A DNA stretch of 64,000 nucleotides, taken from contig DFFP01000009.1 of NCBI GenBank assembly GCA_002372275.1, positions 5,833 to 69,832 of the forward strand, in the 5' to 3' direction. The notes below the pieces were generated by a model, which did no database searches, was not told the DNA's origin, and saw only the letters and a program-made list of their open reading frames with translations. The position numbers were made by a program, and so were the translations under genes. The stretch is from Alphaproteobacteria bacterium UBA3773 (GTDB taxonomy: Bacteria; Pseudomonadota; Alphaproteobacteria; RF32; CAG-239). How positions within the stretch are numbered: position 1 is the first letter of the stretch; each line of letters starts with the position of its first letter. Below are positions 1 to 34,511 of the stretch, piece after piece.

Positions 1-1063
1 CTTTGCTGATTTGATTTCGCATTGAAGGAGTAAGTTCTAAGGCTTTTTTAATGACGCTTGCTAGACTTTCGGCATCGCCCGCTTTGAAATGAAAGCCTGT
101 AATGCCGTCTTTAATCGTTTCAAGCGAGCCGCCGATGTCGGAGGCCACCACAATTCGCCCCATGGCTTCAGCTTCGGCAGAAATACGCCCGAATGCCTCA
201 GGGTCAAGAGAGGCTGAAACCACAATGTCGGAAATCATCATCATGGCAGGAACATCCGTGATGTTTCGGATAAAAGCAAAACGACCTTCCATTCCTTTGC
301 TTTCAATTGCTTCTTTTAATTCATCGGTGTAGTATTGTCGCCCTTGGTCATCACCAACAAAAACACAGCAAAAATCCATGTCCTTGATTTTTTCAAGCGC
401 ATCAATTAACAGGCGTTGGCCTTTCCAGCGTGTTAAACGCCCGATAAGCAAAATAATCGGCTTGTCATCAGGCAGATGATATTCTTCCATCAATTTAATC
501 ATGCGCTCGGGCGTGACCTTTGAGGAGTCGAATTTTTCAACGTCAACGCAGCGGTATATCAAACGAAGTTTATTTTCGTCACAACCGTAGTTTTCTAAAA
601 TGTGTTTTTTGATGTGCTCGGAGATGGCAATCACTAAATCACCTTTTGTCATAACGCTGTTGTATCTGAGTTTTAACCATCTCGGTTTAAGACCGTATGT
701 GCCGTGAAACGTTGTTAAAAAGGCAGCACCCGCTTTTTTTGCAGCCCAGTAGGCACTCCAAGCCGGTGCGCGAGAGCGGGCGTGAACAATATTGATGTTG
801 TTTTCTTTGATGATTTTATAAAGTTTTTTCGCATTCCACCAAATCTTAAGAGGATTCTTTGTTTTAAGTGGAAGCGTAAAATGTTTGACATGCAAATGTT
901 CAAGTTGATATGCCAAGCGACCGCCTTCGGAAGCGACAAAATTGGTAATCCCTCTTTTTTGGAGATCGCCCGCAATTTCAATCGTTCCACGCTCGACGCC
1001 ACCTTGCCCGAGCTCGGGTAAAACTTGAAGAACAACAGGATTTTTTTCTTTATTTTTAACCAT
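1..1063 (-). CDS. Glycosyltransferase family 4 (group 1); the C-terminus lies beyond the window edge
   Basis: Reverse-strand ORF starting at the ATG at 1063 (MVKNKEKNPVVLQVLPELGQGGVERG...). GT4 N- and C-domain pattern ending GRFAFIRNITDVPAMMMISDIVVSAS. It is absent from the ORF track because it has no stop codon inside the window. Confidence 0.75.
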   Translation of the reverse strand, partial: MVKNKEKNPVVLQVLPELGQGGVERGTIEIAGDLQKRGITNFVASEGGRLAYQLEHLHVKHFTLPLKTKNPLKIWWNAKKLYKIIKENNINIVHARSRAPAWSAYWAAKKAGAAFLTTFHGTYGLKPRWLKLRYNSVMTKGDLVIAISEHIKKHILENYGCDENKLRLIYRCVDVEKFDSSKVTPERMIKLMEEYHLPDDKPIILLIGRLTRWKGQRLLIDALEKIKDMDFCCVFVGDDQGRQYYTDELKEAIESKGMEGRFAFIRNITDVPAMMMISDIVVSASLDPEAFGRISAEAEAMGRIVVASDIGGSLETIKDGITGFHFKAGDAESLASVIKKALELTPSMRNQISK

Positions 1064-3611: not shown

Positions 3612-5429
3612 ATGCAAATTCAGAATTTATTCAGAAAACATAATGTCGGTCTGTTTTTAATTCATTTTTTTGTTTTTTATGTGCTGGTTATGTTTGCTCG
3701 GTTTTTGACGACATCCGGTAAGCTTGATCTTTGTATGTGGCAGGGATATCAACTTTCGTTTGCTCTTGCATTTGCATCTGTTTCTGCTCTTTTTGATTAT
3801 AATAAAAAAAATACCGTTCTCTTTTTATTTGTCTCATTTTTGTGGGGTGCGGCATGCTTGTGTAAAATAGGGGTTGGGATGGTGTTATCCGAACGCGAAA
3901 TTGTGCAAACAATCGGGTTTGGAACAGTCTCGTATGTTCTTTTTTCTGTTTTGCTTTATCTCACTCTTTTGGTTAAAAATAAATTCTTTGCTTTGCTCTT
4001 AAAGTGTTTTGTTTTGATTTTATTTGCTATTGTACTTTTGCCGCCGCTTTTGGTTATCGGCTATTATGTGGTCAGTGATGGACATATGCTTTCAAGTAAT
4101 ATTTTGCTGACCTTGTTTCAAACAAATGTTGGAGAGGTTTATGCTTATTTGGCTGAACAAAATGTTTGGCTTTGGGGTGTTTCGGTAACGGCAATCGTTG
4201 TCGTTTCTGTTCTTGTTTCTTATTTATTGGGGCATATCCGAGTGCAGGCTCATTTAGGAAAACTTCTTGTTTTTAATTTAATTTTGATTGTTTATTTAAT
4301 TTTCAGCGTTGTGCCGAAGCTCAGTTCGAGTTTTGCAGTTAATATGTTTGTTCGTGTTGCTGATACATTAAAAGAATATAAATCATATGCGTTGAAAAGT
4401 TCAGAACGTGAGGCCAGACTTAAAACGCTCAAAGATGTATTAAGAACAGATGATGAGGCAGGACTTCATGTCTTGGTGATGGGCGAATCAACAGTCAGAC
4501 ATCACTTGGGCGCTTTCGGATATAAGAGAAATACAACGCCGTGGCTTTCTAAAATGGTTGGTGAAAACAAAAATACGATTATTTATCCGAAAGCCTATTC
4601 AAGTAATATCCAAACAGTGATGTCCATTCAATTTGCTTTAACTTCGCAAAATCAGTATAATGGTGTGTCGCTCGGGGATTCATATAGTTTAACGGAAGTG
4701 GCAACTGCTGCCGGTTATGAGACATATTGGATTTCAAATCAGATGCATTTTAATGCTTATGATACACCGATCAGTTCTATTTTTAACGGCGCTGATCACC
4801 GTATTTTTATTAATGATTATTTCGGGACAAGATTGCTCACAACTTATTATGATGAAAAATTGGCAGAAAAATTTCCGAAACTTGATGAAAATAAAAAGAC
4901 ACTGATTGTTTTTCATTTAATGGGATGTCATAACCTTTATATTGACAGATATCCGGCCGATTTTAAAACATTTACGGATGGCGATGATCCGCGTGTTGAC
5001 AGCTATGATGATTGTATTTTGTATAATGACTATGTTTTGTCGCTTTTGTATCAAAAGGCCATACAAAATAAAAATTTCATGTCATTTACGTTTTTATCCG
5101 ATCATGGGGAAGATCCGGATAATGGTTTAACACATGACTATTCAAAATTTACGTGGCGTATGCCTCATATTCCGTTTGTGACAATTTTTTCAAATGATTA
5201 CGCCTTAAAGCATGAAGATATTGTTGGGACACTTCAAGAACATAAAAACAGCTATTGGACGAGTGATTTATTGTTTAATTTGATGACCCATATTTTGGGA
5301 ATTGAAAATGTGCCGCATGATGCGCCGAAGTTTGATCTTTCAAAGCCGGAGTATGCAATGACTAAAGATAATTTGACGATTATTGAGGGCTCACTTCGCG
5401 TGGCAGATGATGATAGCAAGGACAGATAA
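3612..5429 (+). CDS. Phosphoethanolamine transferase (EptA/sulfatase-family LPS or lipid A modifying enzyme)
   Basis: N-terminal polytopic membrane domain, then a C-terminal sulfatase-like domain with HLMGCH and LSDHGE motifs. Confidence 0.8.
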   Translation: MQIQNLFRKHNVGLFLIHFFVFYVLVMFARFLTTSGKLDLCMWQGYQLSFALAFASVSALFDYNKKNTVLFLFVSFLWGAACLCKIGVGMVLSEREIVQTIGFGTVSYVLFSVLLYLTLLVKNKFFALLLKCFVLILFAIVLLPPLLVIGYYVVSDGHMLSSNILLTLFQTNVGEVYAYLAEQNVWLWGVSVTAIVVVSVLVSYLLGHIRVQAHLGKLLVFNLILIVYLIFSVVPKLSSSFAVNMFVRVADTLKEYKSYALKSSEREARLKTLKDVLRTDDEAGLHVLVMGESTVRHHLGAFGYKRNTTPWLSKMVGENKNTIIYPKAYSSNIQTVMSIQFALTSQNQYNGVSLGDSYSLTEVATAAGYETYWISNQMHFNAYDTPISSIFNGADHRIFINDYFGTRLLTTYYDEKLAEKFPKLDENKKTLIVFHLMGCHNLYIDRYPADFKTFTDGDDPRVDSYDDCILYNDYVLSLLYQKAIQNKNFMSFTFLSDHGEDPDNGLTHDYSKFTWRMPHIPFVTIFSNDYALKHEDIVGTLQEHKNSYWTSDLLFNLMTHILGIENVPHDAPKFDLSKPEYAMTKDNLTIIEGSLRVADDDSKDR

Positions 5430-5440
5430 ATTGCAGAAAA

Positions 5441-5787
5441 AAATGCCATTATGAGCATTTTTTTATCCTCGAGCCCTTTCGGGTTCGATTTCCACGGTAC
5501 AACATCAATAAACAAAAAAAAACACTCTTTGGGTGTTTCTTGTTTATTGGAGCAGACAACGGGAATATGTAGCTAAAGCTACTCGCTAATCAAAAATCTA
5601 AATTCGTTGCGGGCGTTTGCACACTTCCTTACTCATTAAAATTTTTGATCCTCTTGCGGTAAAAAATGCCATCTCGGGCATTTTTTATCCTCGAGCCCTT
5701 TCGGGTTCGATTTCCACTGTACAACATCAATAAACAAAAAAAACACCCTTTGGGTGTTCTTTGTTTATTGGAGCAGACAACGGGAAT
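5441..5787. repeat. Two-copy imperfect direct repeat (about 125 bp per copy, period 221 bp). It contains terminator hairpins and the last 19 nt of tRNA-Gly.
   Basis: 5441..5566 aligns with 5661..5787 at about 93% identity. Copy 2 continues into the intact tRNA. Copy 1 ends at ...tggagcagacaacgggaat and then diverges. Confidence 0.85.
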
Positions 5788-5842
5788 CGAACCCGCATTA
5801 AAAGCTTGGGAAGCTCTCATTCTACCATTGAATTATGTCTGC
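5769..5842 (-). tRNA. tRNA-Gly (anticodon CCC)
   Basis: Minus-strand read GCAGACATAATTCAATGGTAGAATGAGAGCTTCCCAAGCTTTTAATGCGGGTTCGATTCCCGTTGTCTGCTCCA. It has a 7-bp acceptor stem, a D-arm, anticodon loop TTCCCAA, a T-arm GGTTCGATTCC and a CCA end. Confidence 0.9.
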
Positions 5843-6665: not shown

Positions 6666-7064
6666 ATGATAAAAACTAATTTTGAACGATTATATCATAA
6701 AGGATGGCTAAAATCTAAAACAAGTATGTGGAGAGAAACAGACAGATTTACGGCCGGACAGAAATTATATTTTTCTTATGAAAAAAGTCAGGATTATTCT
6801 GTGGGAGTTATCGATCCGACAAGGTTATATGTTAATTCTTTTTCGATTGAAAAGGGTTTAGGAAATTTTTCGCAAGAAAAAGAAAAATTTATAAAAGCAT
6901 ACGGCGCCGTTCCGATTGGACTTAGAAAAATCATAGAGAATTTGATTTTGAAAAATATTGCCCCAGCTTTGAACGATAAAAAAGAAGTGGCGCAATACAA
7001 AGAAAAACTTTGTTTGGCACTTGATTGTTTGGTTTGTCATTATGTCAGAGGAAATCAAAAATGA
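6666..7064 (+). CDS. Phage early protein, hypothetical
   Basis: First ORF transcribed divergently from the repressor. RBS aggagaa upstream. Confidence 0.5.
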   Translation: MIKTNFERLYHKGWLKSKTSMWRETDRFTAGQKLYFSYEKSQDYSVGVIDPTRLYVNSFSIEKGLGNFSQEKEKFIKAYGAVPIGLRKIIENLILKNIAPALNDKKEVAQYKEKLCLALDCLVCHYVRGNQK

Positions 7065-7632: not shown

Positions 7633-8358
7633 ATGGTTGGAATTTTGGATATTTGTCGTTCGGCTGCGGATATAACGGCATCGCAGAGGCCGGATGATTT
7701 GTTTAGAGTTGATACGCAACATAATGCGATTTTTTTATCAATCGCCGAAAATGAATTGGAGAGTTTACTCAGGTATGGAAATTGGCCCGAATTGATTAAA
7801 GAAGGGCGTTTTAGAACACAGCCGAACAAAACTTATTATGCATTTGATCAAATTACTGCGGATTTCTATTGTTTAACCCATAATACGCTCTTTATTAAAG
7901 ACAGAAATGAACGCGTTTTAGGCTCATTCACGTATGAAGAAGCGATGCAAAGAAAGTATTTAAAAACTTCTTCGGGGGAACTTGAATTTAGAATTGAAAA
8001 TAACGGTTTGCGCTTTTTAAAAGCACCTCTGGCGAATTTGAGTGTTGTGTTTTTGTATCGCTCAAATACGATTTGCTATGACGCGGTGACAGGCGAAGAA
8101 AAATGCAAATTGGAAAAAAATGATGATGTGCCTGTGTTTGATCAGTATATCGTTAAACTCGGTATTATATGGAGATGGCTTAAGCGTAGCGGGATGGATT
8201 ATGCCCAGGAATATAACGATTATCAAAATGAACTGAAAAGAAAATATGCACTAACGCTTGAAACACATGATATTTCGCTTGTTAGCGGATATGAACCTTC
8301 AAGATTTAACAATACAATCAATTTATGTGTCGGTGGAGACGGGTATGACAGAAGTTGA
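7633..8358 (+). CDS. Phage protein, hypothetical (241 aa)
   Basis: ORF overlapping the portal-like gene start by 14 nt. No recognisable motif. Confidence 0.5.
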   Translation: MVGILDICRSAADITASQRPDDLFRVDTQHNAIFLSIAENELESLLRYGNWPELIKEGRFRTQPNKTYYAFDQITADFYCLTHNTLFIKDRNERVLGSFTYEEAMQRKYLKTSSGELEFRIENNGLRFLKAPLANLSVVFLYRSNTICYDAVTGEEKCKLEKNDDVPVFDQYIVKLGIIWRWLKRSGMDYAQEYNDYQNELKRKYALTLETHDISLVSGYEPSRFNNTINLCVGGDGYDRS

Positions 8359-10117
8359 AATTTGGATTGAAAAAATACGTCGATCGGAAAAAAAATATGC
8401 TGATTATTTTGATAAAATTAAAACGATACGTCGCTATTATAAAAATGAAAATTCAAGAAATAAACAAAATATTTTTTGGGCAACGATTGAAACCTTAAAA
8501 CCGTTCTTGTATTTTAAGGAACCGAAAGTATTTATCAAGCAAAAAGAAAAATCAGGGCCGCTTGCGCTTTCGGTCGCTTGTCGAATTTTAGAAAAAGCTT
8601 TGGCTTGGAATATGGAACAAATCGATTTTGACAGCGTGATGAAATATGTCAGAAACGACTTTTTGCTTTTTGGATTTGGGGCCGCTTTTGAAAGGTATGT
8701 GCCGACATTTAAGACGTGTCACGTCAATGAAAACGGACATGATGTTTCACTACAACTCTTAAAAGATGAAAAAATTGAAACGGTTTATATCCCTCCGGAA
8801 GATTTTTTGGCCGATACGGAAAAAGTCAATGTGTGGGAAGATTGCGGGTGGATTGCACGTAAAATCGTTATGAGTTTGTCTGAAATTCGCGCCCAATTCG
8901 GTGAAGAAATTTTTCAAAAAATTGTGCAAAAAAACGGTGCCGACAAAATGGACTCCATGACGGTTTATGAAATATGGGATAAGAAAAGTAAGCGTATTTT
9001 ATATTTGGCTTTGGAATTTGCGTTTGAATTTTTGAAAATCAAAGAAGATGCGTTCGGACTTGAAGGATTTTGGGCCTTTCCGAAACCGTTGTTTGGGACG
9101 CTCGCAAATGACGGGATTATTCCGACACCTGATTTTGACCAATTAAAGCCTCTGCTTGATGAACTCTCCGGTGTGACGGGACGTATGCAACTTTTGATGC
9201 AAGCCATGAAGGTCACAGGGGCATATGACAGCAGTTTTCCGGAACTTGCAAATATCTTAAATAAAGATGTGACATTGGTTGCATTGTCGGATTTTGAGCG
9301 TTTAAAAGAAAACGGCGGTATTAAAGGAGTTGTGGATTTCGCCCCGATTGAACAATATGTGTCGGCGTTAACTGTTTTGGCATCAAGACGCGAGGATATC
9401 ATGACACAAATTTATGATATGACCGGGGTCAGCGATATTATGAGAGGAATGTCGGATAAAACGGAAACGGCAACCGCAGTTGAGAAAAAAACGAACTTCG
9501 GGACACTTCGCAATCAGGACAGACAAAATGATATGGTGCGCTTGATGACAAACCTCTTTCAGATGAAAGCTGAAATGATTTGCAGTTGTTTTGATGCAGA
9601 GCACTTGAAAATGTTTGCAGATTCTGAAACGCCTGATGATGTTGTTCAAACAGCTATTCTAATCTTAAAAGAACAAAAATTACGCGGAATGATTTTGGGA
9701 GTGGAAACAGATACGGCATTTGCGCAAAGTCATATCTTAGAGCAAACGCAAAAAAGTATTTTAGCTGTGCATGGCTTGATTAAAGAGGCATTTGAAATGG
9801 TTTCGATTCAACCTTCGCTGTTGGGGCTGTATCGACAGATGATTTCGACACTTGTTTCGACGATGCCTTGCGCCAGACAATATGAGCCCGTGATGGAGAA
9901 AGTATTTGAACAAATTGATGAAGCTCTTCGTTTGCCGAGTCCGCCTACGCAAGATATTTTGGCCTTGCAGCTCAATCAGCAAAAACAAAAAATGTGGCTC
10001 GACTATGATATTAAAACTAAAGAACTCGCTTTGAAAAAAGAAGAGGTTGAAATCAAAAAAACGGAAGCACTTCATAAGGTTTGTGCCAAAGAACATACCT
10101 TAAAAACAAAGAAGTGA
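8345..10117 (+). CDS. Putative portal (head-tail connector) protein
   Basis: Size (about 590 aa), a position in the head module, and a coiled-coil-like C-terminal tail. This is an architectural assignment only. Start placed at the ATG at 8345. Confidence 0.45.
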   Translation: MTEVEIWIEKIRRSEKKYADYFDKIKTIRRYYKNENSRNKQNIFWATIETLKPFLYFKEPKVFIKQKEKSGPLALSVACRILEKALAWNMEQIDFDSVMKYVRNDFLLFGFGAAFERYVPTFKTCHVNENGHDVSLQLLKDEKIETVYIPPEDFLADTEKVNVWEDCGWIARKIVMSLSEIRAQFGEEIFQKIVQKNGADKMDSMTVYEIWDKKSKRILYLALEFAFEFLKIKEDAFGLEGFWAFPKPLFGTLANDGIIPTPDFDQLKPLLDELSGVTGRMQLLMQAMKVTGAYDSSFPELANILNKDVTLVALSDFERLKENGGIKGVVDFAPIEQYVSALTVLASRREDIMTQIYDMTGVSDIMRGMSDKTETATAVEKKTNFGTLRNQDRQNDMVRLMTNLFQMKAEMICSCFDAEHLKMFADSETPDDVVQTAILILKEQKLRGMILGVETDTAFAQSHILEQTQKSILAVHGLIKEAFEMVSIQPSLLGLYRQMISTLVSTMPCARQYEPVMEKVFEQIDEALRLPSPPTQDILALQLNQQKQKMWLDYDIKTKELALKKEEVEIKKTEALHKVCAKEHTLKTKK

Positions 10118-15873: not shown

Positions 15874-16896
15874 ATGGCAAGAATGGATGAACAAACATAT
15901 AAAATCATACGTGGTATGAAAACAATTCAAAGACAGCACCCTCAAAAAGGGGAGAGTAAGTGGTATTATTTGGATCCGCGGGGTGCAACAAGAATAGCCG
16001 ATATGGGGGTGATAGACGTTGAAAGTGAGTATGCGCCTAACCCTTATGCAAGAGAAATTTTAATAGATGATATGAAACGCCATGAAGAAGATTATTATAT
16101 TTGGCGGACAAAAGGTGATGAAAAAGTAAGGGCCAGTCATGAAGAGCGTGAAGGAAAAGTTTATAATAGAAATTTGCCGCCTGATGGGGGTAATCCGGGA
16201 GAAGAACATAACTGCAGGTGTTGGGAAGAGGAATTTAAGTTTGAGAAGATGAAAAATGTTGATATGATTGATCTATTGGAAGAAATTGGTGCAGAATTAT
16301 CAGATGATGAGTTATATGACCGAATGTGGGAGAATATTAAAAGATTTGAAGATATTAAAACGTATCCATACCTTGACACAAAAGGATTAATTACAATTGG
16401 TGCCGGTGCAAATGTAAACAATTTGGATGTTTTTTTGAGTTTAAATTTGACAGTCAACGGATTTTCGGCAACAAGAGAACAAAAGTTAGAAGCATATAAA
16501 CAGTTGAAATGGTTGAGTGAACAAAAAGATGAGAAAGGAATGTATCTATATTATAATAGAAGAGCAAAATTTTTTGAAAAAGAAACAAATGTCCGTTTAC
16601 CTGATGTAGAAATACGGCAATTAGCACAAAGGCATATGACAAGTGATTTAAAACATTTGCGGCAAGAATTTGAAAGTTTTGACGAATTTCCTTTACCGTT
16701 AAAAGAAATATTACTGGATATTCAATATAATGTCGCAGGTGGATTGAGTGAAAAAAAATGGCCGAAGTTATACAGAGCTATACGTCAAAAAGATATGTTA
16801 GGCAAAGAAGGAATTGCAGAAAATGTGAATAGGCCGGATGTCGGAAAAAGTCGTAATGATTGGGCAAAAGGAATGGCGCGTTCAATCAGATTCTAA
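15874..16896 (+). CDS. MuF-motif minor head protein fused to a GH24 phage-lysozyme domain
   Basis: N-terminal region carries DEKVRASHEEREGKVY...PGEEHNCRCW, the C-terminal signature of the Phage_Mu_F/gp7 domain. The C-terminal region carries FEDIKTYPYLDTKGLITIGAGA, matching the T4-lysozyme E...D...TIGxG motif. Confidence 0.6.
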   Translation: MARMDEQTYKIIRGMKTIQRQHPQKGESKWYYLDPRGATRIADMGVIDVESEYAPNPYAREILIDDMKRHEEDYYIWRTKGDEKVRASHEEREGKVYNRNLPPDGGNPGEEHNCRCWEEEFKFEKMKNVDMIDLLEEIGAELSDDELYDRMWENIKRFEDIKTYPYLDTKGLITIGAGANVNNLDVFLSLNLTVNGFSATREQKLEAYKQLKWLSEQKDEKGMYLYYNRRAKFFEKETNVRLPDVEIRQLAQRHMTSDLKHLRQEFESFDEFPLPLKEILLDIQYNVAGGLSEKKWPKLYRAIRQKDMLGKEGIAENVNRPDVGKSRNDWAKGMARSIRF

Positions 16897-17319
16897 TTTA
16901 TCGGGAGGTGTGACGCAATATATATCATTTGCAAACTCCTGTTCTTGTGTGTAGTCTTCCCATATATCAAAGTCATTTTCTGCTATTCTTAAACAATCTT
17001 GCGTAATCCGTTCTGTTATTTTAAAAACAAAATATTGTTTAGGACCTTTTTTATCGGGATTATGCCAATACAAATCACATAAAAGAGTGATACGATTTTG
17101 GGTGTTTTCAATAAGTTGACAGTCTCCGGTCATAGCTACCAGATTGTCATCTAAAGGAGTTCGGCTATCAATAGATGTGGGGGTAATGTATGTTAAAGTA
17201 GAGCTTCTGCCTAAAGGCTTCAGAGGCTGATTAAAAATAGGATTAACAAACTGCTCCTTAGCGTTTGCGGTCAAAATAAAAAGAAAAACAAAAATGAAAA
17301 GAAAGAACATTTTTTTCAT
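16882..17319 (-). CDS. Secreted moron protein (signal peptide, Cys-containing), paralog A
   Basis: MKKMFFLFIFVFLFILTANA signal peptide. Shares the C.LIEN...LLC motif and a conserved upstream sequence with 17720..18139. Confidence 0.6.
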   Translation of the reverse strand: MKKMFFLFIFVFLFILTANAKEQFVNPIFNQPLKPLGRSSTLTYITPTSIDSRTPLDDNLVAMTGDCQLIENTQNRITLLCDLYWHNPDKKGPKQYFVFKITERITQDCLRIAENDFDIWEDYTQEQEFANDIYCVTPPDKLESD

Positions 17320-17354: not shown

Positions 17355-17726
17355 TTGTTAAAATATGATAAAGGAAATTATGTAAATCATAATAAACGAG
17401 CGACAGCTTTTATTAATGATAGCCCTTTGCGAATTTCAAAAGAGTATATGATTGAACGGATGATGAATCATTTAAGAGAAGATTTAAAACGGGCAAAATC
17501 TAAAAGGAAAGATTTTGATACATACCCAACTCCATTAAAACTTATTATATTAGATTTTTATTATAATAAAGGTAGTTTTTATAATCAACCAGGATTACCT
17601 CAAGCATTAGATGAACGAAATGCGATATTATTTCAAGAAAAAATGGTAAGACATATGAGAGATAGAGATGAATGGACGCAACGACAATTTAACCGTATAA
17701 ATCAAAATTTTTGGAAAATTTATTGA
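17355..17726 (+). pseudogene. Lysozyme C-terminal fragment, a remnant of a module duplication
   Basis: The ORF uses a TTG start inside the repeated promoter sequence. Its product aligns only with the C-terminal half of the lysozyme domain of 15874..16896 (PLKxIxLDxxYN) and lacks the catalytic N-terminus. Confidence 0.5.
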
Positions 17727-18139
17727 TAAGGAGGAATAGTTATTAAACCATCATTTGTGAGGATTTCCTCAAAAATTATGTTTCCAAGATTATCGTAAAT
17801 TTTATGATTAATAATGTATTGTTCCGGTGTCGTTTGGTCTTTTGTTAAAGAAAAAGAGTGATTTGTATTTGTGTGAGATGTACATTCAAGGTTAAGGCAC
17901 TCATTACAAAGCATTTTTATATAAGATTCTTGATTTTCAATAAGAGAACAAGGAATATTTAAGGTAATATTGTTTCGCGAATTTTCATAATATTTCGAAC
18001 TTGGTGTTAAAACATAAAATGCTTCTTTGTCAGAAGTTACTAATTTTTGATAGAAAACAGGATGTAAAAAAAACGTTTTAGTTTGAGCATAAGCATTGAT
18101 GCTCACAATAAAAATGAAAAGAAAGAAAAATTTTTTCAT
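17720..18139 (-). CDS. Secreted moron protein, paralog B
   Basis: MKKFFFLFIFIVSINAYA signal peptide. The same 45-bp upstream element (agattctatatagggtttgttaaaatatgataaag) occurs at 17322..17380. Confidence 0.6.
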   Translation of the reverse strand: MKKFFFLFIFIVSINAYAQTKTFFLHPVFYQKLVTSDKEAFYVLTPSSKYYENSRNNITLNIPCSLIENQESYIKMLCNECLNLECTSHTNTNHSFSLTKDQTTPEQYIINHKIYDNLGNIIFEEILTNDGLITIPPYQ

Positions 18140-18204
18140 CTATGACACCTCGCCTTAGAGATTCTATATAGGGTTTGTTAAAATATGATAAAGAGGGGAT
18201 GAAT

Positions 18205-18453
18205 TGTATGAGCTGTTTTTTTGATTTTGATTGACAATTTTTGTAAATTGTGCCATCCTTAAAATAAGGCAGGGTGGTATCTGCCCCGAGGATTAGAACC
18301 CTCTCACTCGTTGCTAATGAAAGCGTAAAATTTCCTTCCGGTTAAGGCTGGAAGGAGGCTAATAATCGATTATTGAAAATATGCCCGCTATTTCGAGTGA
18401 ATAGGTTCTAACTTCCAGTCGCCTTACCAAGGCGAATTTTTTTATGGAGGCAT
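18205..18453 (+). promoter_or_regulatory. Structured 5' leader with an intrinsic terminator just upstream of the RBS (attenuator- or riboswitch-like)
   Basis: TTGACA at about 18229. Long-range helix ggattagaacc...tcactcg/cgagtga...ggttctaa. Hairpin ccttccggttaaggctggaagg. Terminator cgccttaccaaggcg plus a T8 run ending at 18445. The gene's ATG is at 18454. The antiterminator candidate ggctggaag/cttccagtc overlaps the terminator. Confidence 0.5.
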
Positions 18454-19176
18454 ATGATGAAAAAAATATTTATTATCGGGATATTCAGCTTTATGATTAA
18501 TTTTTCTGCACATGCAGAAATTATAATAGGTTCGGATTGCAATAATAAATGTACTTGGTTTTATGATACGCAAACGCAAGATTTAAGAATTGCTCCAAAT
18601 GCAGGCGCATCAGGGGATTTAGTTGTTGGAAATGGTGGTTCATCTTTTGGAGGTATCACAATCAACAATGTGACAATTGAAGAAGGAATTACAGGTTTTA
18701 ATGCTAACAGATTTAACACGGGGATGGGAACAGGATATACAGGAAAAGGAACATTAAAACTGCCGGAAAGTTTGAAGATGACAACAGCATCCGGAAATAT
18801 AGATTTGGCTTTTCAAGCTCTTGATTTGACGGCGACAAATTTGCAAAGCGTCGATTCACTGTCTATACGGCGTTTGCAAAATGTTATCTTAACACCTAAA
18901 GAAGGTTTTGTATTTCCGAGTAATTTTTTGGGAAGATGGAGAAACAGTAAATATACCGGTGCTTATATTGAAGGGGATATCACTATTCAGTGCCGCGGGG
19001 AAATGGCGCTTTGTGAGCAAATGATGGCTAAAGTGAAAGAATACGAAAATAGTCTCGGGGTTGATTTTTTTGTTCGTTATTTTGATAATAGAAAACGCCG
19101 AATTTATACGATTGACGAGGCTGTTGAGGCTCTGGGTAAGAATAATAAAAATACGTTTAGGTTAAAGTATCGGTAA
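18454..19176 (+). CDS. Secreted protein, paralog of 30952..31809 (conserved KRRIYxIDEA...KNxxTFxLKYR C-terminus)
   Basis: Signal peptide MMKKIFIIGIFSFMINFSAHA. Shares a GS[DE]C...CT[WY].YD N-terminal motif and the C-terminal about 25 aa with the ORF at 30952..31809. Confidence 0.7.
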   Translation: MMKKIFIIGIFSFMINFSAHAEIIIGSDCNNKCTWFYDTQTQDLRIAPNAGASGDLVVGNGGSSFGGITINNVTIEEGITGFNANRFNTGMGTGYTGKGTLKLPESLKMTTASGNIDLAFQALDLTATNLQSVDSLSIRRLQNVILTPKEGFVFPSNFLGRWRNSKYTGAYIEGDITIQCRGEMALCEQMMAKVKEYENSLGVDFFVRYFDNRKRRIYTIDEAVEALGKNNKNTFRLKYR

Positions 19177-19400
19177 GGGAAAAAATAAGGAAAAATCGCC
19201 TTTGAAAGCGCAAAAGCGCGGGCGATTAAGCTCAGATCCCTTAATGACCTGACGCGCCGCGCAGGTCAAGGGATGACAGGGTAAGGTGAAGATGCCTGAC
19301 GCTTTGCTTTTGGCATTACCGGTATGACAGAAAAGAGGATGGCGGTTTCAATATTTTATGTGCACGCTGAAATTTTTTTTAGCGTGTTTTTTTAATACTA

Positions 19401-30951: not shown

Positions 30952-31809
30952 TTAACGATATTTTATCGAAAATGTGTTTTTACCTTCGGTGACGGCCGTT
31001 GCTTCATCAACACGATAGATGCGGCGTTTGGATCCATCGGCCATGAATGAACCTAAGAAATTTCCGTCTCCATCATATTTTTTATAGTCACCATTTGCTA
31101 AATACTTGTAGGAATAAGTCTTTTTGCCGTTTTCATCCCATATTTCTATTGGATTTCCGTTATTATCATACCCAATATAATATTCATAAGTTACGTTAGT
31201 ATTTCTGTTCTTTATCATGCTTTGACATTTTTGTATATCACCGCGACATTTGACTTGAATATGTTCAGGAAAACCCCAATTATTAGAATCATTACCATTA
31301 ATAAAACGTTCTATCGTATAATTCATATTATCAGATGCGGTTATAATTAATGTATGGGAGTTCGTCATTCCTAAAGGCATATATACTGTTTGTTCAGAAG
31401 TATTAGGAGAAACTTCAATGGTTCCGAAATTATTATCCCAAATTACAGGCAAATAGTTGCCCCACGTGGTGTGAACAAAGGTACTTGGAATTTTGAGTAT
31501 ACCATCACTGGTTCCCCAACCCATAGTAAATCCAACTGTAGCTCCCGTAATTCCTTCATTAATAATGAGATTTTTTACCAGCATTCCTTTTTTTTGCATA
31601 TATTCAAAAAAATCGTAACCTCCACCTCCGTTCGCTCGTGCTCCTGTTATATCACCGGTGCCGGAAAAGGTCATAGTATAAGTTTCCGAATCATATTCAT
31701 AAGTGCAAGTCCCGTGACATTCTGATCCGGTATATTTTTCTGCCCATGTATTTGCTGTCAATATGCTGTAACATAAAGAACATGATGCCAATAAAATAAA
31801 CTTTTTCAT
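30952..31809 (-). CDS. Secreted protein, paralog of 18454..19176
   Basis: Signal peptide. GSECHGTCTYEYDSETY N-terminal motif and C-terminal KRRIYRVDEA...KNTFSIKYR. Confidence 0.7.
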   Translation of the reverse strand: MKKFILLASCSLCYSILTANTWAEKYTGSECHGTCTYEYDSETYTMTFSGTGDITGARANGGGGYDFFEYMQKKGMLVKNLIINEGITGATVGFTMGWGTSDGILKIPSTFVHTTWGNYLPVIWDNNFGTIEVSPNTSEQTVYMPLGMTNSHTLIITASDNMNYTIERFINGNDSNNWGFPEHIQVKCRGDIQKCQSMIKNRNTNVTYEYYIGYDNNGNPIEIWDENGKKTYSYKYLANGDYKKYDGDGNFLGSFMADGSKRRIYRVDEATAVTEGKNTFSIKYR

Positions 31810-32150
31810 GAGTGTTCTCCTTATATTTTTCTGAGATTCCGAAACAAGTTCGGAATGACAATAGAGTTAAAAAAACCGCCCAATCAGGCGGTCGGAGAGT
31901 TGAACAATCATGTTAGGTGAAATGACTCTTTTGGCCTTTAGGAATACCTTGTACATTCGCCAAAAGCTCCCCGACCAACTGGATATCGGGGATAAATATG
32001 CATTCCTTTTAAAAATAAAAAGGACAGCACATATTGCAGTGTTATCCGGCACTGCACCTAACAAAGAGCTGTTCAAAGCTCCGCGCCTTATTTCAGGCAC
32101 TTGATATATTTCTATACCATGTCATCATATTAACATTTTTTATAAAAAAT
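31810..32150 (-). promoter_or_regulatory. Long structured leader with an intrinsic terminator about 60 nt upstream of the start of 30952..31809
   Basis: Minus-strand promoter TTTACA-N17-TAATAT (about 32140..32110). Stem-loops gcagtg/cactgc, ccccga/tcgggg and cttttggc/gccaaaag. Terminator ccgcctgattgggcgg plus a T7 run at about 31870..31895, then a further hairpin before the RBS. Confidence 0.5.
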
Positions 32151-32205
32151 GTAAAGAAAAAAACCGTCTTGTGTGTGGCAAGGCGGTTTTTTTAGTTTTA
32201 AGAGG

Positions 32206-32409
32206 TTATAAAATTTCGATATTTCCGGCAGCAATACGTCCGCGGTCATCATATGGTTCATAACTGACGCGTTGGCCGTCAATTAAGCGTCTTAAACCCT
32301 TTTCTTCAAGTTTTGTGATATGCACAAAAATGTCTTTGCCTCCTTTTTCAGGTTCAATAAAACCATATCCTTTGCGCGTATTAAACCATTTTACAGTTCC
32401 GGTCGTCAT
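32206..32409 (-). CDS. cspA: Cold-shock protein (CspA family)
   Basis: GTVKWFNTRKGYGFI RNP1-like motif. Bidirectional terminator downstream. Confidence 0.9.
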   Translation of the reverse strand: MTTGTVKWFNTRKGYGFIEPEKGGKDIFVHITKLEEKGLRRLIDGQRVSYEPYDDRGRIAAGNIEIL

Positions 32410-34437: not shown

Positions 34438-34511
34438 TGCTTCATCGTCTAATGGTAGGACAGCGGATTCTGACTCCGTCAATATTGGTTCGAGTCCAGT
34501 TGAAGCAGCCA
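34438..34511 (+). tRNA. tRNA-Gln (anticodon CTG)
   Basis: TGCTTCATCGTCTAATGGTAGGACAGCGGATTCTGACTCCGTCAATATTGGTTCGAGTCCAGTTGAAGCAGCCA. Acceptor stem TGCTTCA/TGAAGCA, anticodon loop TTCTGAC, CCA end. Confidence 0.9.

Follow-up and report, generated by a model that had tools for sequence, protein, structure and literature searches.

Locus and architecture of leader 1

The 64,000-nt stretch of contig DFFP01000009.1 analysed here (assembly GCA_002372275.1, Alphaproteobacteria bacterium UBA3773; hereafter the window, whose coordinates are used throughout) carries, on a prophage, a highly structured RNA leader of ~190 nt at 18245-18454 on the plus strand, 5′ of a gene encoding a secreted protein. 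An initial annotation of this DNA had described a leader running from a TTGACA box through a long-range helix, an internal hairpin and a palindrome to an intrinsic terminator, a ribosome-binding site (RBS) and an ATG. All of these elements were found on direct reading, except that the terminator is followed by a run of 7 T (18437-18443) rather than 8. The element is named leader 1 below, and its parts are as follows, where states 1 and 2 denote two alternative sets of pairings and MFE the minimum free energy structure:

18231-18259 (+): candidate promoter as read from the sequence, TTGACA at 18231-18236, 17-nt spacer, CATCCT
18221-18226 and 18244-18249 (+): alternative promoter, TTGATT and TAAATT separated by 17 nt
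18268-18285 (+): H1, 5′ hairpin GGCAG-GGUGGUAU-CUGCC, present in the MFE
18288-18303 (+): hairpin A region, with strand A5 (GAGG, 18288-18291), segment a (18293-18300) and strand A3 (CCUC, 18300-18303); GAGG pairs with CUUC 18412-18415 in state 1 (helix P1) and with CCUC (A3) in state 2
18293-18300 (+): segment a, UUAGAACC, 5′ strand of helix P2, pairing with a′ (GGUUCUAA, 18404-18411)
18305-18310 (+): segment b, CACUCG, 5′ strand of helix P2′, whose partner is b′ (CGAGUG, 18394-18399)
18313-18324 (+): P3, hairpin GCU-AAUGAA-AGC
18334-18341 (+): 5′ copy, CCUUCCGG, forming helix P4 with the middle in state 1; hairpin partner CUGGAAGG at 18348-18355
18346-18355 (+): middle, GGCUGGAAGG, common partner of the 5′ copy (P4) and of the 3′ copy (P1alt, the antiterminator)
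18357-18385 (+): P5, with outer stem GGC/GCC, an internal loop with AAUA on both strands and an inner palindromic hairpin
18361-18374 (+): palindrome AAUAAUCGAUUAUU, the inner hairpin of P5
18388-18404 (+): hairpin B (Pb), with strand B5 (CUAUU, 18388-18392), b′ (CGAGUG, 18394-18399) in the loop and strand B3 (AAUAG, 18400-18404)
18404-18411 (+): segment a′, GGUUCUAA, 3′ strand of P2
18412-18420 (+): 3′ copy, CUUCCAGUC; its CUUC pairs with GAGG (P1) in state 1 and the entire segment with the middle (P1alt) in state 2; overlaps the terminator stem
18419-18443 (+): intrinsic terminator UCGCCUU-ACC-AAGGCGA, from sequence and terminator scan, with stem-loop at 18419-18435 and U7 run at 18437-18443
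18446-18450 (+): RBS, GGAGG, followed by the ATG at 18454

Transcription of leader 1 is predicted to start at about 18256-18267, and in the relatives described below a TTGACA/TTTACA-N17-TAnnnT promoter lies ~8-10 nt 5′ of H1. No promoter-like site was found on the plus strand between 18185 and 18778; the candidate promoter listed above is a reading of the sequence. The U run ends 3 nt before the RBS. Since the neighbouring upstream open reading frame (ORF; 17720-18139) is on the minus strand, and no plus-strand gene ends 5′ of the leader, the terminator serves no upstream plus-strand gene, in agreement with the initial annotation. The predicted fold is considerably more stable than expected for its composition: a 221-nt stretch has an MFE of -76.5 kcal/mol as against -52.8 ± 4.5 kcal/mol for dinucleotide shuffles (z = -5.26), none of 200 shuffles being as stable.

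A second leader had been proposed at the paralogous gene at 30952-31809. Both a leader and a terminator were confirmed there, with the correction that they are on the minus strand, the leader itself being located at 31857-32123. Its fold is even stronger than that of leader 1 (z = -7.37), and exactly two copies of the RNA are present in the window. The elements of this leader 2 are:

31857-32155 (-): leader 2 with promoter
32127-32155 (-): promoter TTTACA-N17-TAATAT
32083-32100 (-): H1
32065-32082 (-): hairpin A and segment a
32055-32062 (-): segment b
32037-32054 (-): P3
31986-31991 (-): 5′ copy, CCCCGA
31967-31976 (-): middle, GGUCGGGGAG
31928-31966 (-): P5 equivalent
31908-31925 (-): Pb
31900-31906 (-): segment a′
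31890-31899 (-): 3′ copy, CUCUCCGACC
31869-31893 (-): terminator

Homologous leaders and their distribution

About 45 homologous leaders were recovered, among the matches listed, by a pattern scan and a covariance model (R1), with E-values down to 4e-46, and some of them were found independently of the search pattern. On the basis of sequence the leaders fall into class A (leader 2 and copies at loci L002, L004, L007 and L009), class B (leader 1 and L005) and class C (L008). Every member of the secreted-protein family that was found has a sigma-70-like promoter, a structured RNA of 200-240 nt, an intrinsic terminator and an RBS directly upstream, in gene neighbourhoods that are otherwise unrelated (beside accA and csp, between secY and mutY, after groEL, near recG). 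A conserved, covarying leader is present at both orthologous and paralogous genes, as the initial annotation would have it.

Scanning genome representatives with the pattern GGCTGGAAGG-N42-72-AACTTCCAG gave at least 120 loci. Most of these GGCTGGAAGG..AACTTCCAG matches were chance occurrences in coding sequence (for example a GWKG...NFQ motif in Sphingomonas and Rhodanobacter) and were discarded by eye, and ~28 clear homologues with the whole architecture kept were found among the matches listed. A pattern scan of metagenomes added L027, 5′ of a lipoprotein gene, and L028, 5′ of a gene for a BspA-type leucine-rich repeat (LRR) protein carrying the same C-terminal motif as the secreted-protein family (see below). 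A protein-based scan of genome contigs with alignment A2 produced 92 pattern matches, none of which was confirmed, the source species being evidently absent from the GTDB representatives, and scans of viral contigs with two class-B patterns returned chance matches in coding regions only.

Model R1 was built from 31 class-B sequences and recovers all of its inputs. Copies that it identified independently of the pattern include L002 5578-5801 (143 bits, 5′ of an LRR_5 gene) and two more in L079 (117 and 109 bits), and further variants were found 5′ of LRR_5 genes. Class-C RNAs are matched at 51-59 bits and class-A RNAs weakly but significantly, including leader 2 (25.9 bits, E = 2e-4). Because a model of leader 1 relatives detects leader 2, the two leaders are related, which bears out the earlier suggestion of one RNA family common to both.

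At least 20 metagenome-assembled genomes (MAGs) carry leaders. They are mostly labelled Alphaproteobacteria and come from roe deer and yak rumen, from Hadza and Nepali human gut, and from UBA and UMGS bins; a few leader-bearing bins are labelled otherwise and are possibly mis-binned. In one of the latter, labelled Deferribacteraceae, the full RNA core occurs without a U-run terminator (L099 634-860, minus strand), which may reflect either a translational expression platform or a wrong bin label. The RNA is clearly multi-copy per genome: one rumen MAG (L079) has three copies within 8 kb, at 629-850 (+), 6769-7000 (-) and 7710-7940 (-), at least two of which precede genes for small secreted proteins of ~180 aa.

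The position of the RNA relative to a gene is constant. At 28 of 32 loci, a same-strand ORF begins 23-74 nt downstream of the conserved 3′ motif; of the other four, two are truncated at the locus end. The downstream products include type IVb pilins (PilS_N and Bundlin domains, N-terminal methylation motif), BspA-type LRR proteins, an RgpF-like protein, and several lipoproteins and proteins with signal peptides. While the proposal of an undescribed cis-regulatory RNA family is supported, its restriction to a single secreted-protein family is therefore not, as the leader is also found 5′ of pilin, LRR, lipoprotein and other envelope-related genes.

Covariation supports two alternative sets of pairings

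The order of elements is the same in all members: H1, A5-a-A3, b, P3, 5′ copy-loop-middle, P5, B5-b′-B3, a′, and a 3′ copy overlapping the terminator. When the pairings of state 1 were scored in alignment A4, 85.3% of the cells were paired, as against at most 49% with slid partners, and double-sided changes occurred at 38 of 60 pairs. The core pairs of P2 have 11-16 double-sided compensatory cells each, and there are many in P2′, the helix of segment b, where compensatory changes are seen at all 8 pairs (compare CACUCG/CGAGUG in W1 with CACAGA/UCUGUG in L005). P3 changes on both sides at 6 of 6 pairs (87.9% paired), and P4 is canonical in 27-37 of 37 sequences per pair and compensates where the middle differs. 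The terminator stem also covaries in the relatives. The column pairs of H1, by comparison, are variable, and just 66.5% are paired in A4. In class A (alignment A6) state 1 is 98.3% paired, with compensatory changes at 18 of 50 pairs.

Covariation also supports state 2. Its pairings are present in 94.9% of cells in A4, with 19 of 30 pairs compensatory and none of 500 shuffles equalling this, and in 98.2% in class A (A6). Alignment A5, which includes the pattern-independent and class-C copies, was fitted to the structure of state 1; even there, the helices that are specific to state 2 are 98.4% paired, with 9 of 17 pairs compensatory and again 0 of 500 shuffles equal. P1alt itself is 99.4% paired in this alignment and has 3 compensatory pairs. 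The stem of hairpin A is 96.6-96.8% paired with both-side changes at 4 of 4 pairs, and hairpin B is 98% paired, with the variants CUAU/AUAG, CUGU/ACAG, CCAU/GUGG, CAUU/AAUG and CCGU/ACGG. In P5, the outer stem shows 11, 12, 2 and 6 double-sided changes per pair, and AAUA is invariant or nearly so in A4; the AAUA/AAUA internal loop, plus a few junction bases, is the only motif conserved across classes. A likeness of P5 to the 11-nt tetraloop receptor is seen in one subgroup only.

The strongest evidence is that the three segments involved in the competing pairings vary in concert across subclasses, as follows (5′ copy; middle; 3′ copy):

standard class B: CUUCYGGUC; GGCUGGAAG; CUUCCAGYC
L079: CUUCUAACC; GGUUGGAAG; CUUCCAACC
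class C: ACAUUCGUC; GGCGGAUGU; ACAUCCGCC
L001 and L007: AACUCC; GGGGAGUU; ACUCCC
class A, leader 2: CCCCGA; GGUCGGGGAG; CUCUCCGACC

Within the class A set, both copies change from A to G in L008, and an A-U pair of P1alt is swapped to U-A in L009. The competing pairing of GGCUGGAAG (18346-18354) with CUUCCAGUC (18412-18420), noted in the initial annotation, is thus present, and is conserved with compensatory changes where the sequence differs. Its overlap with the terminator stem does not, however, extend over the whole 5′ half, comprising only the first 2 nt in leader 1 and 4 nt in most relatives.

Two local features of H1 did not stand up in the comparison. A T-box-like reading of GGUGGUA in the H1 loop of leader 1 was rejected, the motif not being conserved in relatives, and a pairing of the H1 loop (GAUAGU/CACUAU) is confined to one subgroup, with no covariation in W1, L079, L051 and L122.

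Energetics and the link to the terminator

For the class-B sequences that were scored, the MFE corresponds to state 1. Among 30 full-length RNAs, P1alt was absent from every MFE, and 28 retained a terminator of 6 bp or more. When the 3′ domain was folded alone, P1alt of at least 7 bp formed in 25 of 30, and the mean length of the terminator dropped from 6.4 to 4.3 bp. The terminator stem begins with the last 2-4 nt of the 3′ copy, and in the isolated 3′ domain of leader 1 the formation of P1alt cuts that stem from 7 to 5 bp. In full-length RNAs, imposing P1alt cost ~5-20 kcal/mol (17 RNAs scored; -66.5 versus -46.8 kcal/mol for leader 1).

The duplex between the middle and the 3′ copy was more stable than that between the 5′ copy and the middle in all 37 RNAs (mean -16.3 versus -12.4 kcal/mol). 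P1alt is therefore the intrinsically preferred pairing, and it is the long-range helices that decide the outcome: the preference is overridden only by the zipping-up of the 5′ domain via P1, P2 and P2′. On this reading, the 5′ half acts as an anti-antiterminator, and the long-range helix of leader 1 has this function, beyond that of a scaffold.

Proposed mechanism

We consider it likely that these RNAs are cis-acting transcription-attenuation leaders of a previously uncatalogued family, with anti-antiterminator, antiterminator and terminator layers and with OFF as the default. Two features of an attenuation leader with a terminator-type expression platform are present, namely an intrinsic terminator separating the promoter from the regulated ORF, all in one orientation, and a conserved alternative helix, P1alt, that shares nucleotides with the terminator stem. 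More broadly, the leaders appear to form a new family, or better a superfamily, of cis-regulatory RNAs with a covariation-supported switch at an intrinsic terminator, which is predicted to control exported and surface proteins in uncultured gut Alphaproteobacteria, including the prophage-borne gene in the window.

The purine-rich middle has two complementary pyrimidine partners, the upstream 5′ copy and the 3′ copy, the latter extending into the terminator stem. According to the model, state 1 would arise when the 5′ half zips onto the 3′ half via P1 (GAGG/CUUC), P2 (a/a′) and P2′ (b/b′); the middle would then be held by the 5′ copy in P4 and the terminator would form, halting transcription a few nucleotides short of the RBS. 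In state 2, the local hairpins A (A5/A3) and B (B5/B3) would take the place of the long-range helices, and the middle would pair with the 3′ copy to give P1alt, which would close a three-way junction together with P5 and hairpin B. The terminator would then lose its first base pairs, and RNA polymerase would read into the gene. With a thermodynamic default of OFF, a signal would have to disfavour the long-range helices or stabilise the junction in order to turn the gene ON. The regulated step is probably the formation of the long-range helices, which would be nucleated from hairpin loops, segment a lying in the loop of hairpin A and b′ in that of hairpin B. State 2 may be triggered by a small molecule, by a protein that binds the RNA or by kinetics alone, ligand sensing being one of these three possibilities.

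Several points weigh against this reading. The overlap of P1alt with the terminator is small (just 2 nt in leader 1 and 4 nt in most relatives), and antitermination may accordingly be partial; state 2 is also 5-20 kcal/mol less stable than state 1, and no effector or conserved ligand pocket was identified. The search pattern fixed GGCUGGAAGG and AACUUCCAG in 28 sequences, which biases their apparent invariance within class B, so that the compensatory evidence for P1alt rests on ~10 pattern-independent copies. Hairpins A and B could, furthermore, coexist with P2 and P2′ as kissing-type pseudoknots, in which case part of the state-2 covariation could derive from a single complex fold. Finally, while the conserved fold, the covariation of both sets of pairings, the terminator overlap, the energetics and the fixed position 5′ of genes are results of the analysis, the transcription start, the efficiency of termination and the extent of read-through are inferred, as are the existence and nature of an effector.

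An additional, translational layer is hinted at by the ribosome-binding sites. Many controlled genes have an RBS of the AAGGAAGU type (e.g. L038, L058, L093, L122, L145 and L005 3980-4000), which resembles the middle and is complementary to both CUUCC copies. An RBS of the GGAAG type was found at 9 of 28 controlled ORFs and at 15 of 154 background ORFs, an enrichment of only ~3-fold, with start-codon calls that are imprecise; mimicry of an RBS by the middle accordingly carries no weight in the model.

To our knowledge, the carrier lineages are known almost only from rumen and human-gut MAGs, and we know of no description of how colonisation factors are regulated in them. The occurrence of a multi-copy leader before pilin, adhesin-like and lipoprotein genes as well as a prophage moron points to a common control of the cell surface at the RNA level, and an RNA of ~200 nt with two defined conformations and clear mutational predictions provides an experimentally tractable handle on it. 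From the viewpoint of RNA biology, a family in which covariation supports both conformations of a switch is uncommon, and the design of the anti-antiterminator is unusual; if a ligand exists, the leaders would represent a new riboswitch class.

Alternative explanations

A more specific version of the model, which refines the attenuation-leader explanation without excluding it, is that the RNA is a small-molecule riboswitch whose aptamer would be the state-2 three-way junction (P1alt, P5 with its AAUA/AAUA loop, and hairpin B), stabilised by a metabolite or second messenger and acting as an ON switch for surface-protein genes. The two-state architecture with a terminator overlapping a P1-like helix, the concentration of conserved unpaired nucleotides in P5 and the junction, and the many copies per genome before functionally related envelope genes are consistent with such a switch, and pilin genes are known to be riboswitch-controlled elsewhere. 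Yet conservation in the junction is limited to very few nucleotides, its strand a′ varies and covaries with a, and the subclasses differ greatly in sequence, a plasticity that is atypical of metabolite aptamers; in addition, the leaders match no known aptamer model and the controlled genes give no metabolic clue, so that we regard this version as possible but doubtful. The same caution applies to its most far-reaching form, which can be put forward only tentatively. In it, the leaders would be a signal-sensing RNA switch class, a metabolite or second-messenger riboswitch whose 5′ anti-antiterminator docks via two loop-strand helices, and a putative master control of the exported surface proteome of gut Alphaproteobacteria (type IVb pilins, BspA-like adhesins, lipoproteins and phage-borne morons). 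The balance between P4 and P1alt might instead be shifted by a global RNA-binding regulator that recognises the AAUA/AAUA loop or the 5′ hairpins, in a protein-dependent antitermination or attenuation of the kind that BglG/SacY, PyrR, TRAP and ANTAR proteins exert on their own targets. The structural evidence is the same as for the attenuation leader in general; the symmetric internal loop as the main motif conserved across classes and the variation of helix sequences within a fixed topology fit a protein recognising shape or loops, and many copies per genome (e.g. three in 8 kb in L079) would likewise be in line with it. No candidate regulator gene was found beside the loci, though no systematic search was made, and the Rfam models of PyrR, T-box and L10/L20 leaders score at chance level; we would assign such a mechanism a rather low probability.

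Explanations that dispense with the switch appear much weaker. It is highly unlikely that the element is a stand-alone gene for a trans-acting small RNA (sRNA), with the downstream gene being expressed by incidental read-through or functionally unrelated. A strong promoter-like site and a strong terminator would indeed delimit a discrete transcript of ~190-240 nt, leader 1 shows a weak likeness to the trans-acting sRNA-Xcc1 (31.6 bits), repeats resembling miniature inverted-repeat transposable elements (MITEs) can separate the terminator from the RBS, and the exposed CUUCC motifs are complementary to GGAAG-type RBSs. Against this, the RNA lies directly 5′ of a gene, in the same orientation, at ~30 of 32 loci and travels with the gene into different neighbourhoods, leader 1 leaves no room for a separate promoter, and a conserved competition for the terminator stem would be purposeless in a plain sRNA. 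A terminated leader could nevertheless have a secondary role in trans. A single static pseudoknotted fold, in which P2, P2′ and hairpins A and B coexist and which would serve as a stabiliser, a processing element or a constitutive partial terminator setting a fixed low expression, seems quite improbable too. The linkers flanking each of the two hairpin loops (5′, 1-3 nt; 3′, 0 nt) would fit a kissing geometry, and state 1 is strongly favoured thermodynamically. P4 and P1alt, however, share nucleotides and are mutually exclusive, and both are nonetheless kept by compensatory changes; in all 37 RNAs, moreover, the middle pairs better with the 3′ copy, which overlaps the terminator, and this too is hard to explain without an exchange of partners.

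Two further readings were discarded. Leader-peptide attenuation was considered in view of an SD-like GGAAGG and an AUG in some members, in which the AUG position reads AAUAUG or AAUAAR and is not conserved. An equilibrium RNA thermometer is unlikely in view of the 5-20 kcal/mol by which state 1 prevails at 37°C.

Comparison with known RNAs

At gathering thresholds, the 4227 covariance models of Rfam 15, which include all curated riboswitch classes, matched two tRNAs only in the window and tRNAs only in 16 homologous loci. This agrees with the earlier statement that no known riboswitch consensus is matched. Permissive Rfam scans of leaders 1 and 2, L027 and L005 gave sub-threshold matches only; T-box, PyrR and purine models found no match in leaders 1 and 2, and the T-box model (RF00230) none in either leader even at E ≤ 10.

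The sub-threshold matches included sRNA-Xcc1 (RF02221), an integron-associated trans-acting sRNA of Xanthomonas (PMC2996969). Membership was rejected, as leader 1 scores 31.6 bits and leader 2 20 bits against a gathering threshold of 53, and L027 and L005 have no match at E ≤ 1. The state-2 domain of leader 1 (18346-18428, plus strand) does align, below threshold, to the whole 87-nt model, and in this alignment the two RNAs would have in common a 9-bp closing helix, a first hairpin with AAUA-type internal loops, a short second hairpin and a single-stranded joiner before the 3′ strand. Unlike leader 1, sRNA-Xcc1 is described as free-standing and not as a leader with a competing 5′ domain, and the likeness does not extend to the closest relatives of leader 1. 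The similarity in outline could reflect distant kinship or convergence.

Terminator platforms with three layers are well known from the trp leader (1:2, 2:3 and 3:4 pairings), T-box leaders, PyrR attenuators and the pbuE adenine ON-switch. The leaders resemble these in being promoter-proximal, with a terminator directly 5′ of the ORF, an antiterminator sharing stem nucleotides and an upstream sequestering element. They differ in that the anti-antiterminator is a ~90-nt 5′ domain engaging the 3′ domain via two hairpin-loop-to-strand helices, and also in lacking a leader peptide, as there is no conserved ORF and the P5-loop AUG occurs in some members only. A type IV pilin gene under riboswitch control is pilA1 of Clostridioides difficile, which has a cyclic di-GMP (c-di-GMP)-II riboswitch upstream. 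There, as predicted for the many members found here 5′ of PilS/bundlin-type pilins, a terminator-bearing leader decides on a pilin or surface-adhesion gene; the RNAs are nevertheless unrelated, no c-di-GMP-I or -II model matches, and the hosts of the present leaders are Alphaproteobacteria. The DNA order of promoter, RNA, terminator and protein gene is also that of type III toxin-antitoxin systems (ToxIN). The downstream proteins, in contrast, have signal peptides or pilin leaders and are not ToxN-like, and no ToxI-type tandem repeat array was found by Tandem Repeats Finder in 18100-18500.

In the literature, no prior description of the motif was found, including among pilin or BspA riboswitch candidates. 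The main text of a large catalogue of unnamed gut-microbiome RNA candidates makes no mention of pilins or Alphaproteobacteria (PMC8040213), and an unnamed entry of that catalogue may overlap the leader family.

The controlled proteins and their surroundings

The genes controlled by the two leaders in the window are:

18446-19176 (+): leader-1-controlled gene including the RBS; coding sequence 18454-19176, 240 aa, signal peptide, no Pfam family
30952-31822 (-): leader-2-controlled paralogue including the RBS (31815-31822); coding sequence 30952-31809, 285 aa

The paralogous proteins are 25% identical (E = 5e-17). Hardly any relatives of the 240-aa protein were found in a set of 5.8 billion proteins, and the leader-2 paralogue retrieves 8 further proteins, all from a few ENA metagenomes. 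No fold could be assigned to the controlled protein: the AlphaFold2 (AF2) model has a mean confidence (pLDDT) of 70.8, and the best PDB match, TpLRR, is not significant (E = 0.28). Both proteins (18454-19176 and 30952-31809) share a strongly conserved C-terminal stretch of ~45 aa, GDYxxYDxDGNFLGSFMADGSKRRIYTVDEAxAVTGxKNTFSIKYR, for which there is no Pfam model. A shorter version, the KRIYTVEEA...KNTFSIRYR end only, closes the BspA-type LRR protein of L028 (490-1326, minus strand), and the downstream protein of L056 ends in a degenerate version, RLRYTPAEAAEV...VTITFRK. The shared stretch may be a common sorting or anchoring domain.

PHROGs matches (portal, large terminase, major head, head morphogenesis and tail fibre proteins) place the leader 1 locus in the structural module of a prophage, and a second terminator is located 3′ of the controlled ORF, at 19362-19387. 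With this position and the terminators, the leader 1 unit looks like a moron. The stretch from 16.9 to 19.4 kb also contains two small signal-peptide ORFs on the minus strand (16882-17319 and 17720-18139) and a lysozyme/pesticin-like fragment (17355-17726, plus strand), and looks like an accessory (moron) gene insertion between head and tail genes. The two tRNA genes of the window are at 5772-5842 (-) and 34438-34508 (+); the former lies just outside the phage portal/terminase block and could mark the prophage integration site.

Directly 5′ of leader 2 there is a cold-shock-domain gene with its own terminator (32210-32407, minus strand), an arrangement that is kept in an orthologous metagenome contig (L004 866-1069) and not at the other leader loci. 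At several class-A loci, short palindromic MITE-like repeats of the GTCATTCCG...CGGAATC and CGTCATTACGAGCGAAGCGTCGTAATCC types are found between the terminator and the RBS:

31835-31859 of the window (-): MITE-like repeat
L002, ~9925-9975: MITE-like repeat
L007, ~3880-3990: MITE-like repeat
L009, ~3950-3990: MITE-like repeat

With these insertions, variation in the length of the spacer between the leader terminator and the RBS is evidently tolerated.

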